Source: Escherichia phage muut. Taken from it: a DNA stretch of 64,000 nucleotides. Below the pieces are notes generated by a model, which ran no database searches, was not told the origin of the DNA, and saw only the letters and a list, made by a program, of their open reading frames with translations. Shown in pieces: positions 8,958-14,724 of the stretch. Location of the stretch: the sequence record NC_052657.1; one strand, written 5' to 3'. Position numbers and translations under genes: made by a program. Within the stretch, counting starts at the first letter, position 1; each line of letters begins with the position of its first letter.

Positions 8958-9388
8958 ATAAATTACTTCAGTGTTACCACAAAGTGACGAACTGCTTTTC
9001 GTGCAGCAGAAGCCAGAGGCTTAGCATACTTAAGTTCATCTTTTTCCATTATAAATTCTCTTTTAAATGAAAATGCAGGACTTATTGGCATTGCCTGCGC
9101 AAGCCCTCAAGGGGAACATAGGTTTTTGTATATTTAACGACCAGGATAACCATAAACCCGTCATCATTCACATTCAAGAGGTACACCATAAAACTGCCGG
9201 GGTCTTAAAACTATAATGATTCGCAAATCATTAATCAGACAGTTCGATGGCTCCTCGATTTTAGCTCACACTAAGGCAGTGAATCTCCAATAAACTAAAA
9301 AATCACTTAAAAAGAACCGCTAGAGTTTGAAGGAGAAAACCATGAGCGAAAAGAGAAATTTTCTCTAGCGATTCCATTTAAATAATCT

Positions 9389-9463
9389 TGGAGCGAGTAA
9401 CAGGACTTGAACCTGCACCTGGAGGGTGGAAACCTCATATGCTACCATTAACACTATACCCGC
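9389..9463 (-). tRNA. tRNA-Gly (anticodon UCC)
   Basis: 75 nt; anticodon loop TTTCCAC, T arm GCAGG-TTCAAGT-CCTGT, acceptor GCGGGTA/TACTCGC with one G-U, CCA. Confidence 0.6.
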
Positions 9464-9518
9464 TTAACAATATTACTCTAACATATTATTAGCCCCTTTG
9501 TCAAGAGGCTTTTAATAT

Positions 9519-9842
9519 TTATTTTAAAATAGTAGATGCACCACGTCTGTTTAGATATGCAACCGTAAAGCTCAAATCACCTATTTCTTCAGGTTCCCAC
9601 TGACCTTCTAAGCCATAACAAGAACAATGATATGCGTGTACTTCATAAAACAAAGATGTTTTCATATCATAGAAATAAACGTGAGATTCGCCTTCATAAT
9701 ATGCACAATCATAAGTGGCAGAAAGAATTACAATGTTATCCTTATCTAACTCTACTTCATAATATCTTTCAACATCTTCAATATCATCAAAACCATCGAA
9801 AACATTGATATTAAAATATTTCTCTAACTCTTTTTCTGTCAC
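9519..9842 (-). CDS. hypothetical protein (about 107 aa) embedded in tRNA array
   Basis: ORF between tRNA-Gly and tRNA-Thr; probable GTG start with AGGGGG RBS. Confidence 0.45.
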   Translation of the reverse strand: MTEKELEKYFNINVFDGFDDIEDVERYYEVELDKDNIVILSATYDCAYYEGESHVYFYDMKTSLFYEVHAYHCSCYGLEGQWEPEEIGDLSFTVAYLNRRGASTILK

Positions 9843-9865
9843 ATACACCCCCTTTAGAGTTAAAT

Positions 9866-9940
9866 TGGTGCTCCCACAAGGACTCGAACCTTGATAAGTT
9901 GCTTACAAGGCAACCGTAATAGCCGTTATACGATAGGAGC
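9866..9940 (-). tRNA. tRNA-Thr (anticodon UGU)
   Basis: 75 nt; anticodon arm GTTGC-CTTGTAA-GCAAC, T arm CAAGG-TTCGAGT-CCTTG, acceptor 7 bp with one G-U, CCA. Confidence 0.65.
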
Positions 9941-10019
9941 AAAATATTTGCTTGGTAGGATTTGATACCTACAATTCTAGAAAATTCTAGAGGTTTCTAT
10001 TAACTCTACAAGCACTATT

Positions 10020-10104
10020 TGGCGATGGATCAAGGATTTGAACCTTGCTAGAACTTTCGTTCACGGATTAACAGTCCGTCGCCCAACCACTAGGCCAATC
10101 CATC
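10020..10104 (-). tRNA. tRNA-Asn (anticodon GUU) with unusually long variable arm
   Basis: Exact acceptor GATGGAT/ATCCATC, CCA, discriminator G; anticodon arm ACGGA-CTGTTAA-TCCGT; 15-nt variable hairpin GAAC-GAAA-GTTC. Confidence 0.5.
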
Positions 10105-10111
10105 TTTAATT

Positions 10112-10198
10112 TGGTGCAGGTAGTTGGACTCGAACCAACGAAGCCCCGAAGGGCAGGAGATTTACAGTCTCCAGCAATTGCCGCTATGCGATACCTAC
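10112..10198 (-). tRNA. tRNA-Tyr (anticodon GUA)
   Basis: 87 nt type II; anticodon arm GGAGA-CTGTAAA-TCTCC, variable hairpin GCCC-TTCG-GGGC, T arm GTTGG-TTCGAGT-CCAAC, CCA. Confidence 0.7.
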
Positions 10199-10203
10199 GT
10201 GTT

Positions 10204-10278
10204 TGGTACATCGTGAAGGATTCGAACCTTCGACCTTGGAGTTAAAAGCCCTTGCTCTACCAACTAAGCTAACGATGT
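10204..10278 (-). tRNA. tRNA-Lys (anticodon UUU)
   Basis: 75 nt; exact acceptor ACATCGT/ACGATGT, D arm GCTT-AGTTGGTA-GAGC, loop CTTTTAA, T arm GAAGG-TTCGAAT-CCTTC; anticodon stem only 3 bp. Confidence 0.6.
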
Positions 10279-10406
10279 ATAAATTATCTTTAAAATAGCC
10301 AGTGTTTGCGGCACTGACTATGAGGTATCGGTAAAATGGCTGCCACCATCTGCCGAAAGTTTACTCTGCTAAAGTAAGTAGCCTCAACGCTACATTAAAG
10401 ATAACT

Positions 10407-10492
10407 TGGCGGTAGATGTAGGACTTGAACCTACACGCCGTTTCCGACGACAGTTTAGCAAACTGTTGTGGCTACCATTTCACCAATCTACC
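10407..10492 (-). tRNA. tRNA-Ser (anticodon GCU)
   Basis: 86 nt type II; exact acceptor GGTAGAT/ATCTACC, anticodon arm ACAGT-TTGCTAA-ACTGT, long variable arm, CCA. Confidence 0.7.
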
Positions 10493-10500
10493 GTTTTTAA

Positions 10501-10653
10501 TTATTCAAAACAACCGGAATCTTTTTGTTCTGCTTTTACCATACGAATATTTTTACCATCTTCAGATTGTTGAAGATTAGAATACTCATAAACAACTTTA
10601 TTATTTACAATCTTAACTCCGGTAACAACCTGTCCAATAGTTTTATAATTCAT
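10501..10653 (-). CDS. hypothetical protein (50 aa)
   Basis: Start moved to internal ATG (AGGAG RBS) because longer track ORF overlaps tRNA-Ser(UGA). Confidence 0.4.
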   Translation of the reverse strand: MNYKTIGQVVTGVKIVNNKVVYEYSNLQQSEDGKNIRMVKAEQKDSGCFE

Positions 10654-10671
10654 AAAGCTCCTAGTTGAATT

Positions 10672-10761
10672 TGGAGGAAGATAATGGAGTCGAACCATCA
10701 CCGTATCACTACAATGGGCCAGGGTTCAAACCTGGTTGCGCACCGCTGCGCCCTACCTTCC
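10672..10761 (-). tRNA. tRNA-Ser (anticodon UGA)
   Basis: 90 nt type II; acceptor GGAAGGT/ATCTTCC with one G-U, anticodon arm CCAGG-TTTGAAC-CCTGG, T arm GATGG-TTCGACT-CCATT, CCA. Confidence 0.65.
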
Positions 10762-10824
10762 CGTTATCATACTTTAAATCTAACATAAAACTATCTTGCT
10801 TGTCAAGCAGTTTTTAAAACTTTT

Positions 10825-10906
10825 TGGCCGGGGTGACAGGATTCGAACCTGCATACTCCAATTACTCGGTTAACGCCTGATTAGAAGTCAGGTGAGATAC
10901 ACCCCG
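10825..10906 (-). tRNA. tRNA-Arg-like (anticodon UCU), non-canonical arm order
   Basis: Exact acceptor CGGGGTG/CACCCCG, CCA, T arm GCAGG-TTCGAAT-CCTGT; UCU hairpin sits right after U8-A9 and a D-loop-like segment follows it. Confidence 0.4.
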
Positions 10907-10978
10907 TTTTCACAGTAACTATAACAAAAAACTAAGTAAATGTCAAGATATTTTTACTAAAAATATTATTTAAATTGA

Positions 10979-11084
10979 AGCCTAGTTATGGAATCGAACC
11001 ATATTTCGTATTTAGTTAGACAAAGCGGTCTAACATATTTTTCAGGCTTTGATGGCCTCGGAATTACCAAATACCCTACTAGGC
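10979..11084 (-). ncRNA. tRNA-like element, about 105 nt, with large insertion
   Basis: Exact acceptor GCCTAGT/ACTAGGC and T arm TATGG-TTCGATT-CCATA, no CCA; inner hairpins AGGC-CATCAAA-GCCT and GTTAGAC-CGCTTT-GTCTAAC. Confidence 0.3.
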
Positions 11085-11086
11085 GT

Positions 11087-11171
11087 TGGTGCAAGTGGAG
11101 GGATTCGAACCCTCAAGCATTTAAGCGTTGCGTTTTAAGCACAATGTGTATCACCAATTCCACCACACTTG
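11087..11171 (-). tRNA. tRNA-Leu (anticodon UAA)
   Basis: 85 nt type II; exact acceptor GCAAGTG/CACTTGC, anticodon arm TTGTG-CTTAAAA-CGCAA, T arm GAGGG-TTCGAAT-CCCTC, CCA. Confidence 0.65.
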
Positions 11172-11286
11172 CATATAGGAGATGCATAGCACCTCCTTTT
11201 AAATGGTGGTTCCCCAGGGTTACAATCCCTGCCCTCGACACTTATGAGGTGTGCGCTCTCGTCAGTGAGCTATGGAACCTTGAATA

Positions 11287-11553
11287 TTAAGCATACTGGG
11301 TCATTTCACCAGCTTCGCGTTTCTCCAGAAGAACTGCAATCAAAGCAATAGCTGCTTCTTCTTCGTGAGGAAGCCCCATTTCATCCAGAAGAGCAAGGAA
11401 GTCAATTACCAAACTTTCTGTTTTAAGGCTAACGCTACCATTTTCGTTTTCAGTAAGAACTGATTCAGGATCAAAAATAAAGATTGCTCCACCTTTATTA
11501 TCAATCAATACGTGCTTCTCAATCAATTCTTTGCCATAAGTCTTTTCTGTCAT
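11287..11553 (-). CDS. hypothetical protein (88 aa)
   Basis: ORF with AGGAG RBS; first gene downstream of minus-strand promoter. Confidence 0.5.
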   Translation of the reverse strand: MTEKTYGKELIEKHVLIDNKGGAIFIFDPESVLTENENGSVSLKTESLVIDFLALLDEMGLPHEEEAAIALIAVLLEKREAGEMTQYA

Positions 11554-13830: not shown

Positions 13831-14724
13831 TTAAAAATTCCACACGTATGGAGATACAATTTGTTGTTGCAAATCTGACTGATTCTTAACAAGAACACCG
13901 GAATCTTCTTGGATGTTATCTTCCCACACATTAAGAGAATGAATGCAGTCAAAGTGCTCACTTAACTCTTTAAGACCTTTAGAAAAGATACCGTGTGTAA
14001 CATATAACTCAATCTTACCTGCGTTACGAGCACGTAGCACTTTAGCCAATTCAATAAAAGTTCTACCGCCGTCACAGATATCATCTACGATCATCAGGTT
14101 ACGCTTATTGAAATCCTGTACAGAAATGTCTGTACGAACAATAGCACCTGTCGCAGTATCTCTAACCTTCTCTGCACAGAACACATCTAAAGACATTTTC
14201 TTAGATAATTTAAATATTTTCTTAAGAGCACCACCATCAGGACTAACAAGAGCAAAATTCTCCATACGTAACTTCCACTTTAAAGTTTCGTAAGCAATCT
14301 CTTCTTGAGGTATTACACAGAGTCTGTCAAACACCGCTGGAGTAACATCACTATGTGGATCAGCAACGATAACACGTGAGAAATTTAATGAATTAATTAT
14401 AGAAGCAAATGCTTTAACTCCGAATGCTTCCCCAGGTTCACACACTCTGTCTTGTCGTGCATATGGCACATACAACATGAGCAAATCAACACAATATGGT
14501 TTATGATATAGCATATTGTCCAATGCATTCTTAGTCATAACCAAAGTCATCAAGTCTTTAGCAGATCTTACTTCTAAAGAGAGTAAGATTCTGTCTGTAG
14601 CATGATTGAAACCTGATAGATTCGTATCTAGTTGAACATGTTGTTCTCCACCAGAGAATGTAAAGACTTTAACGTCTACATCAGTAACATAACAGTTAAC
14701 ACCATGTAGAATACTAACTTTCAT
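13831..14724 (-). CDS. ribose-phosphate pyrophosphokinase-family enzyme (Prs-like; possibly Adps of NARP1)
   Basis: 297 aa; PRPP-binding loop MIVDDICDGGRTF typical of Prs / type I phosphoribosyltransferases; directly upstream of nadV-like gene. Confidence 0.6.
   Translation of the reverse strand: MKVSILHGVNCYVTDVDVKVFTFSGGEQHVQLDTNLSGFNHATDRILLSLEVRSAKDLMTLVMTKNALDNMLYHKPYCVDLLMLYVPYARQDRVCEPGEAFGVKAFASIINSLNFSRVIVADPHSDVTPAVFDRLCVIPQEEIAYETLKWKLRMENFALVSPDGGALKKIFKLSKKMSLDVFCAEKVRDTATGAIVRTDISVQDFNKRNLMIVDDICDGGRTFIELAKVLRARNAGKIELYVTHGIFSKGLKELSEHFDCIHSLNVWEDNIQEDSGVLVKNQSDLQQQIVSPYVWNF

Follow-up and report, generated by a model that had tools for sequence, protein, structure and literature searches.

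A long variable arm on the tRNA-Asn of Escherichia phage muut marks a widespread class of phage tRNAs with a possible role in defence evasion

Introduction

According to textbooks and current reviews, long variable arms in bacteria are confined to tRNA-Leu, tRNA-Ser, tRNA-Tyr and tRNA-Sec, and the arm is an identity feature. A gene at 10020-10104 in a 64,000-nucleotide stretch of Escherichia phage muut (NC_052657.1; hereafter the window) raises the question of what such an arm is doing on a tRNA-Asn(GUU), and which amino acid this tRNA carries. A sequence-only reading of the window had described the gene as a type-II-like tRNA-Asn and had offered two outcomes, mischarging or recoding on the one hand and a benign insertion on the other. 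The description is correct, and the phenomenon is far larger than one gene; neither of the two outcomes fits well. The tRNA-Asn gene is already annotated, and the extra arm is the unremarked part. The tRNA can be described as a cognate isoacceptor of class I with the frame of class II.

Results

The window belongs to a phi92-like E. coli myovirus (Justusliebigvirus), and its region 8000-11500 is 97-99% identical to phi92, PD06, ESCO9 and many others. The tRNA-Asn is identical in ~50 phi92-like phage records, including phi92, and is annotated as tRNA-Asn there. ARAGORN called tRNA-Asn(gtt) on the minus strand at 10020-10104, with a length of 85 nucleotides and CCA encoded within, and covariance-model scoring, which the sequence-only reading had suggested as a check, gave 56.5 bits with the Rfam tRNA family RF00005 (E 1.3e-10; gathering score 29). 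The minimum-free-energy fold (ViennaRNA) is a five-armed cloverleaf that includes a GAAC-GAAA-GUUC hairpin (z = -2.6), so that caller, family model and fold all confirm the gene.

Read 5' to 3', the tRNA is GAUGGAU UG GCCU AGUGGUU GGGC G ACGGA CUGUUAA UCCGU GAACGAAAGUUCUAG CAAGG UUCAAAU CCUUG AUCCAUC G CCA. The 5' strand of the acceptor stem, GAUGGAU (10098-10104), pairs with 10024-10030 and includes G1-C72 and A2-U71. The D arm GCCU-AGUGGUU-GGGC (10081-10095), placed by Rfam, the fold and pair counts, has a 7-nucleotide loop (A14 G15 U16 G18 G19 U20 U21), and the anticodon arm ACGGA-CUGUUAA-UCCGU (10063-10079), placed by comparison with asnT of E. coli MG1655, exposes the anticodon GUU (10070-10072), which decodes AAC and AAU. 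The T arm CAAGG-UUCAAAU-CCUUG lies at 10031-10047 according to Rfam and the alignment described below, and the discriminator G73, an Asn identity element (PMC9976931), at 10023. The GUU anticodon and the discriminator G that had been claimed can both be read directly in the sequence. With a 7-bp acceptor stem, a 5-bp anticodon stem under a 7-nucleotide loop that has U33, and a 5-bp T stem under a UUCRANY loop, the molecule belongs to RF00005. The acceptor/T branch is 7/5 and hence unlike the 8/4 or 9/3 layout of allo-tRNAs.

The variable region comprises 15 nucleotides, namely the hairpin GAAC-GAAA-GUUC with 4 base pairs and a GNRA tetraloop (10051-10062), supported by the fold and by covariation as the earlier reading had it, and an unpaired 3' tail, UAG, at positions 46-48 (10048-10050), which was assigned in a census of arm geometry. 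A variable region of more than 10 nucleotides with a stem-loop defines class II, and this one, with its covarying 4-bp stem, belongs there. The D stem had been read as 3 bp long; in this gene a U13.G22 wobble adds to the three Watson-Crick pairs G10-C25, C11-G24 and C12-G23, and all four are paired by Rfam and ViennaRNA. Two core positions, G15.G48 and U21, are non-standard. An alternative fold with a standard variable loop of 4-5 nucleotides was looked for and none was found, because covariation pins down the flanking helices (anticodon, T and acceptor) and leaves 15 nucleotides between positions 43 and 49. Reading the hairpin as an intron was rejected as well, since the bulge-helix-bulge motif is absent; no bacterial precedent is known for an intron at the variable-region position.

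Is the arm a peculiarity of this phage? Long-arm tRNA-Asn genes, full-length and alike in architecture, were found in three further lineages. In Phapecoctavirus, phage nieznany has a tRNA-Asn of 86 nucleotides with the arm GUUC-GAAA-GAAC-GAU; in Tequintavirus, GEC_vB_N7 and T5 carry one, that of T5 being 83 nucleotides long with the arm GUC-GAAA-GAC-AAC; and among T4-like Klebsiella and Enterobacter phages, Roth16 has one of 85 nucleotides with the arm GUCA-GAAA-UGAC-UAG. BLAST returned 132, 279 and 176 GenBank phage records for the Phapecoctavirus, Tequintavirus and T4-like Klebsiella lineages, respectively. The T5 tRNA-Asn shares with that of the window the GUU anticodon, G73, the encoded CCA, a nearly host-identical anticodon arm, a GAAA-capped variable arm and a 3-nucleotide tail; it differs in overall sequence (~77% identity), in its acceptor strand GGGUCGU, in a 3-bp arm within a 13-nucleotide region, and in a U-A pair at 28-42.

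IMG/VR was then scanned with sequence patterns that fix part of the anticodon arm as well as the T loop (for Asn, positions 29-41), and the matches were passed to ARAGORN; the matches listed may not be random samples, and IMG/VR includes host tRNAs at prophage ends. Among the matches listed, 121 distinct tRNA-Asn(GUU) were recovered, ~105 of them with a variable region of 13-20 nucleotides. A scan open to any variable-region length gave 15 long-armed tRNAs among the 120 viral stretches listed (~12%). In cells they are rare: a long-only pattern run against 185,579 species genomes (one each) matched 32 stretches, ~16 of which are true long-arm tRNA-Asn, and 10 of these ~16 are members of arrays, with 7-36 tRNAs in 8 kb, as in Micromonospora. 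No copy was found in 5,426 complete E. coli genomes, and on this basis a host or prophage origin was rejected. In viral loci the long-arm tRNA-Asn is never solitary (median 10 tRNAs per locus), compared with 26% of normal viral tRNA-Asn; a conserved neighbour or partner gene was sought in these loci, and the neighbouring isotypes were diverse, with no specific association. The long-arm tRNA-Asn is a widespread class that is essentially specific to phages and mobile elements.

The Verrucosispora/Micromonospora chromosomes were conspicuous in their own right, with 23-36 tRNA genes within 8 kb that include a long-arm tRNA-Asn of 89-90 nucleotides and short tRNA-Leu. These arrays resemble the mobile-element 'tRNA array units' of mycobacteria (PMC12803027).

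Conservation of the arm was assessed in an alignment of 17 related sequences that share a 4-4-4-3 layout of the variable region. All helices of the RF00005 cloverleaf are 91-100% paired and covary (in the acceptor stem, 7/7 pairs covary and 100% are paired), and pairing in the variable-arm stem is complete (100%), with 3/4 pairs changed on both sides. Next to GAAC/GUUC in the window there are GUUC/GAAC in nieznany and GUCA/UGAC in Roth16, and one IMG/VR sequence (L187) has a body exactly as in the window tRNA-Asn with the stem GAGA/UCUC instead. A stem of 3 bp or more is present in 91% of 87 diverse long-arm tRNA-Asn, versus 57% of shuffles (shuffle maximum 71%), and the geometry of the class is a 3-4 bp stem, a 3-4 nucleotide tail and a GNRA loop in 63%, despite very divergent sequences. 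The tertiary pair 15-48, in which 48 is the last base of the variable region, covaries as G-C or A-U in the class, the window having G.G, and G13.A22, which makes a true 3-bp D stem, occurs in 40/87 relatives. Together the 15-48 covariation and the frequent G13.A22 suggest a normal class-II-type core, and in many members of the class the pair is a normal G15-C48 or A15-U48 and the stems are G/C-rich. As far as such comparisons can tell, the arm is likely to be maintained by selection. A benign insertion is a poor fit to an arm that is kept with compensatory changes across unrelated phage families and is strongly enriched in viruses versus cells.

Which amino acid, then, does the tRNA accept? 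In bacteria, a tRNA owes its Asn identity to the anticodon plus G73, a set that is transferable to another tRNA, while arm size is the main determinant of tRNA-Ser, with G1-C72 and G2-C71 conserved in bacterial tRNA-Ser (PMC9976931). The Asn anticodon G34 U35 U36, in a CUGUUAA loop, and G73 are both present in the window tRNA-Asn, and G73 was found in 85/87 parsed long-arm tRNA-Asn. The bacterial Asn hallmark U1-A72 is present in 66/109 long-arm relatives and absent from the window tRNA, which has G1-C72. This pair lets the GatCAB route separate tRNA-Asn from tRNA-Asp, and it is dispensable where asparaginyl-tRNA synthetase (AsnRS) exists, as in E. coli.

The competing sets are all incomplete. 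For Ser, G1-C72 and G73 are present, but A2-U71 replaces G2-C71, and the arm geometry is not matched, with 4 bp and a 3-nucleotide tail in the window tRNA-Asn against 5-7 bp and a tail of 0-1 nucleotides in viral tRNA-Ser (5 bp and 1 nucleotide in the phage's own tRNA-Ser(GCU)). The arm does match the Tyr-type geometry, exemplified by the window tRNA-Tyr arm U-GCCC-UUCG-GGGC-UUC, but only U35, G34, G1-C72 and this geometry agree with the Tyr set (A73, U35, GUA, G1-C72), and G73 and U36 differ. Of the Leu set (A73, A15-U48) neither part is present, the window having G73 and G15.G48. Converting tRNA-Tyr to Ser acceptance reportedly took, in the work of Himeno and colleagues in 1990, a longer arm plus a change at position 73. 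Because the Asn identity set is present, the competing sets are incomplete and the T5 homologue helps in the rescue from PARIS described next, this is, on analysis of its determinants, very likely a genuine Asn-decoding and Asn-charged tRNA.

A possible reason for the arm comes from a defence enzyme. AriB of PARIS cuts the E. coli tRNAs for Lys (UUU), Thr (UGU) and also Asn (GUU) between positions 40 and 41 and requires contacts beyond the anticodon stem-loop, including the D loop; co-expression of T5 tRNA-Lys, tRNA-Thr and tRNA-Asn overcomes the toxicity of PARIS and restores infectivity to tRNA-deleted phages, and T5 tRNA-Lys escapes AriB by substitutions at positions 39 and 41 (PMC12409363). 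Cleavage of E. coli tRNA-Lys is abolished by U39A. In the window, ARAGORN calls an uninterrupted block of tRNA genes, Lys(UUU)-Tyr(GUA)-Asn(GUU)-Thr(UGU), on the minus strand at 9866-10278, the tRNA-Asn gene directly adjoining tRNA-Tyr, and Lys, Thr and Asn of this block are the three E. coli isoacceptors that AriB cuts.

At positions 36-41, the window tRNA-Thr has UAAGCA and tRNA-Lys UAACUC, both differing at position 39 (the site of E. coli tRNA-Lys is UAAUCA). The window tRNA-Asn, in contrast, keeps the host sequence UAAUCC: its anticodon arm is identical to that of E. coli asnT over positions 28-43, including the AriB site U36AAUCC41, and the variable arm branches off the helix at a distance of three nucleotides downstream from the AriB cut. 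The two tRNAs also have G73 and the 7/5 acceptor/T architecture in common; asnT differs in its 5-nucleotide variable loop AUGUC, in U1-A72 and in A21, and with 62% identity overall the two are unrelated outside the anticodon arm. T5 tRNA-Asn has U36AAUCC41 too, the site of the host tRNA according to PMC12409363 and the asnT comparison, and T5 tRNA-Thr(UGU) has U36AAUCA41, the host site as given in the same paper. Both of these T5 tRNAs, tRNA-Asn and tRNA-Thr(UGU), carry unconventional long arms. The arm is unmentioned in the main text of the PARIS paper, from which the word 'variable' is absent (PMC12409363).

Long arms were also found on other isotypes in viral loci, namely in Cys (10/68), Trp (6/71) and some Met, Glu, Ile(GAU) and Thr(UGU), and in none of the Lys(UUU) (0/84) and Arg(UCU) (0/76) tRNAs of the viral sample. 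The T5 tRNA-Thr(UGU), examined in phage T5_ev212 (LR597659.1, 8134-8220), is 87 nucleotides long with the arm A-GGA-GUAA-UCC-CGUU. The same record shows the opposite deviation in tRNA-Leu(UAG) and tRNA-Leu(UAA), both just 77 nucleotides long and without a variable arm (9881-9957 and 14050-14126). All known bacterial tRNA-Leu carry a long variable arm; 84 distinct viral tRNA-Leu of 74-78 nucleotides were counted, including the two of T5. Furthermore, 13/23 of the ARAGORN calls of 'tRNA-Ile(UAU)' in viral loci are 91-96 nucleotides long, with an insert 3' of the anticodon arm in which the motif AGAUAAU or AGAUUAG recurs; this insert could be an arm, an intron or a mis-call.

The surroundings of the tRNA-Asn gene hold further irregular tRNAs. 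Fifteen ARAGORN-called genes form an array on the minus strand at 8242-11279. The tRNA-Lys(UUU) at 10204-10278 (minus strand) has an irregular anticodon stem with 3/5 standard pairs in my own parse, and its Rfam alignment is marked with non-canonical pairs and a deletion. The best Rfam match of tRNA-Ser(UGA) at 10672-10761 (minus strand) is the tRNA-Sec model, at 35.1 bits, which is under the gathering score. At minimum free energy it folds with acceptor and T stems of 8 and 4 bp, respectively, a D stem of 5 bp closed by a 4-nucleotide loop, a variable arm of 7 bp, and U73, in agreement with the (8/4) tRNA-Ser known from phages (PMC5389517), and the phi92 record marks this gene as a pseudogene. 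Between tRNA-Ile and tRNA-Met, the stretch 8320-8404 (minus strand) is weakly tRNA-like, scoring 22.4 bits (E 0.48) with the tRNA-Sec model of Rfam. D and T arms, an anticodon arm with CCA (Trp) and a terminal CCA can be made out in it, with ~10 nucleotides separating the acceptor strand from the D stem; it folds no better than shuffles and could be a decayed or non-canonical tRNA-Trp. Four GenBank records (MG065639, MG065645, MG065656 and MG065689), labelled 'Campylobacter phage' with C. jejuni as the host, are 98% identical to the window phage over the tRNA region; mislabelled hosts or contaminant isolates are the probable explanation.

Even odder than the long-arm tRNA-Asn is a tRNA-Arg(UCU)-like gene at 10828-10906 (minus strand), which ARAGORN missed and which scores 38.6 bits with the Rfam tRNA model. 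It has a 7-bp acceptor stem, a UCU anticodon arm, a 'variable' region of 23 nucleotides and a normal T arm, with no D arm in the usual place. The gene is present at full length in 244 GenBank phage records (Felixounavirus, Asteriusvirus, Mydovirus, phi92-like phages and one Streptomyces phage), where it is mostly unannotated or labelled 'tRNA-OTHER', and in 69 IMG/VR contigs. A 3-bp helix of positions 11-13, before the anticodon arm, with 40-42, after it, is paired in 43/43 distinct viral sequences and shows double compensatory changes, with U-A 27, A-U 8 and G-C 8 times at pair 12-41 and C-G 35, G-C 5 and U-A 3 times at pair 13-40. A local hairpin in the minimum-free-energy fold showed no covariation, and the long-range helix was preferred. 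Directly 3' of this helix lies the invariant UAAnUGGAGUAU, which resembles a D loop in having GG and then an A in the position of A20, the identity base for arginyl-tRNA synthetase. The anticodons of the set are all Arg (UCU, with one UCG and one CCU). Going by these alignments, the gene looks like a tRNA-Arg in which the 3' strand of the D stem and the D loop are placed downstream of the anticodon arm, and it may represent a new tRNA topology. No description of such a rearranged D arm was found in a limited literature search.

Discussion

The picture that best accommodates these results, though it stays tentative, is that of an Asn-accepting tRNA with a selected arm and a role in defence evasion. 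In this proposal, a functional Asn-accepting phage tRNA would be transcribed within the tRNA array and decode AAC and AAU. It keeps what AsnRS is known to require, namely the GUU anticodon, G73 and an anticodon stem-loop that is almost identical to that of the host, and adds a short arm of Tyr geometry with a 4-bp stem, a GNRA loop and a 3-nucleotide 3' tail. Such an arm should be compatible with the ribosome and EF-Tu, because class II tRNAs work normally. It would reshape the variable-loop face just 3' of positions 40/41 and leave aminoacylation identity untouched; defence enzymes that cut or bind host tRNA-Asn, with AriB of PARIS as the worked example, would then fail on the phage copy, and the phage tRNA-Asn could replace the destroyed host tRNA-Asn.

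That evasion of tRNA-targeting defence is the purpose of the arm is a more doubtful part of this explanation. Its most specific form is about as doubtful: the arm may be a structural anti-determinant, or 'shape mask', on phage tRNA-Asn and on T5 tRNA-Thr(UGU) as well, which escapes defence tRNases as the tRNA stays a normal substrate of AsnRS.

Several points weigh against this proposal. Compensatory changes show that a helix is kept up once it is present; a function does not follow from them. Among the AriB targets, Lys(UUU) is the prime one, and it is never long-armed in the sample of 84, and the long arms on Cys, Trp and some Met, Glu and Ile tRNAs sit on isotypes that are not known as AriB targets. 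An arm and a mutated site, considered as alternative escape routes, found no support in viral Thr(UGU), where UAAUC[A/C] is retained in 7/11 long-arm and 23/57 short-arm tRNAs, a difference that is not significant in a sample too small. Class II synthetases approach from the variable-loop side, as in the complexes of aspartyl- and seryl-tRNA synthetase, so the arm could hinder AsnRS, the absence of hindrance being deduced only from the T5 rescue. Overexpressed phage tRNAs might moreover be inhibitors and not replacements, and the in vitro cleavage work did not include T5 tRNA-Asn or tRNA-Thr (PMC12409363).

The alternative that survives best, unlikely as it appears, is that the arm is a tolerated passenger: AsnRS would read only the anticodon and G73, phage tRNAs would act briefly, and an inserted hairpin would be nearly neutral. 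The need to stay paired once present would explain the compensatory changes, but a passenger accounts poorly for the uniform geometry over very divergent sequences. The sporadic long arms on other isotypes in the same viral loci, together with the armless viral tRNA-Leu, make the arm-isotype rule look generally relaxed in phages; however, the isotype frequencies are very uneven, from ~12% of viral Asn to none of the Lys(UUU) and Arg(UCU) sampled. No specific partner or neighbour gene was found in viral loci, as a passenger would have it, and yet the arm is kept in three phage families and in the model phage T5, and its enrichment in viruses over cells amounts to orders of magnitude.

It is improbable, in turn, that the arm is a structural prop or a handle for processing or modification, unrelated to defence, which would steady the folding or lifetime of a weak tRNA core. 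The window tRNA does have weak features in U13.G22, G15.G48, U21 instead of A21 and A/U-rich stems, 46% of the class combine the arm with core features of class II such as G13.A22, and GNRA tetraloops are classic elements of stability or docking. A prop is hard to reconcile with the many long-arm tRNA-Asn that have a normal 15-48 pair and G/C-rich stems; for a handle, the stems vary freely, no arm sequence beyond the loop is conserved that would mark a protein site, and no candidate factor was identified.

The mischarging proposed earlier, in which seryl- or tyrosyl-tRNA synthetase would charge the GUU tRNA through its long arm and Asn codons would partly be read as Ser or Tyr during infection, is very improbable and poorly supported: the long arm, G73 and G1-C72 do form part of what determines Ser (PMC9976931), tRNA-Tyr has G34 and U35 as well, and nev-tRNAs and allo-tRNAs are precedents of long-armed tRNAs with non-cognate anticodons (PMC4033280, PMC5389517), but the full Asn set is present, the arm is Tyr-type in geometry and unlike the tRNA-Ser arms of phage and E. 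coli, A2-U71 stands where tRNA-Ser conserves G2-C71, Tyr and Leu both need A73 and are excluded by G73, two-thirds of the class carry the Asn-specific U1-A72, the T5 homologue contributes to the rescue of tRNA-Asn-depleted cells (PMC12409363), and, with Asn at 4.9% of codons across the longer open reading frames of the window, misreading would hit the whole proteome.

How does the window tRNA-Asn compare with known systems? Nematode nev-tRNAs and bacterial allo-tRNAs are alike in joining a long arm to the anticodon of a class I family, but the identity sets they keep are those of Leu, Ser (or Ala), they act in mistranslation or suppression, and allo-tRNAs have 8/4 or 9/3 branches. The window tRNA-Asn, by contrast, combines a Tyr-type arm with a branch of 7/5 and the identity set of its cognate Asn, and for these reasons would be expected to translate faithfully. 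In tRNA-Tyr, which is class II, a 3-4 bp stem, a tetraloop or triloop, a 3-nucleotide 3' tail, G34 and U35 are all shared; A73 and A36 stand against G73 and U36, and GNRA loops, the majority in long-arm tRNA-Asn, make up 2% in tRNA-Tyr. Phage tRNAs that escape anticodon nucleases, such as T5 tRNA-Lys against AriB, are the closest in role, an anti-defence function having likewise been proposed for phage tRNA arrays (PMC10264068, PMC11464382). The window tRNA-Lys and tRNA-Thr share the position-39 substitutions of such tRNAs, whereas the window tRNA-Asn retains an unaltered anticodon arm and would, on this proposal, escape through an added structure, a mechanism so far undescribed.

As to its origin, Tyr(GUA) and Ser(GCU) are each one base from GUU, and a recent anticodon-shift copy of either was considered. 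The global identity of the window tRNA-Asn is 55% to the phage's own tRNA-Tyr, the lowest in the array, 59-63% to Ser and 58-66% to Leu, no better than to unrelated tRNAs, and a recent copy was rejected. An ancient origin from a type II tRNA is conceivable, and the diverse acceptor stems and arm lengths are compatible with an old origin or with gains on several occasions.

The full-text papers searched, reviews among them, contain no account of a class-II-like tRNA-Asn in phages; they leave out most subscription journals and the T5 tRNA papers of the 1980s, so that prior notice is possible. A review of non-canonical tRNAs leaves phages unmentioned (PMC7609411), and the only remark in a phage study concerns its tRNA-Asn scoring 'inconsistently' by isotype (PMC12482277).

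A cognate-looking, long-armed tRNA-Asn as a conserved virus-specific class loosens the rule that ties the arm to the isotype, with consequences for tRNA annotation and isotype scoring in phage genomes, and it offers those who engineer orthogonal translation a case from nature in which AsnRS apparently tolerates an extra arm. The three lineages alone place it in ~1% of sequenced phages, the model phage T5 among them. Because two of the three tRNAs with which T5 was shown to defeat PARIS, its tRNA-Asn and tRNA-Thr, are long-armed, the arm as an escape determinant is directly testable with existing reagents. If the proposal is true, the arm would constitute a second, structure-based route of tRNA anti-defence beside point mutations in the anticodon arm, and would explain why class-II-like class I tRNAs are common in the arrays of phages and mobile elements and almost absent from cellular core genomes.

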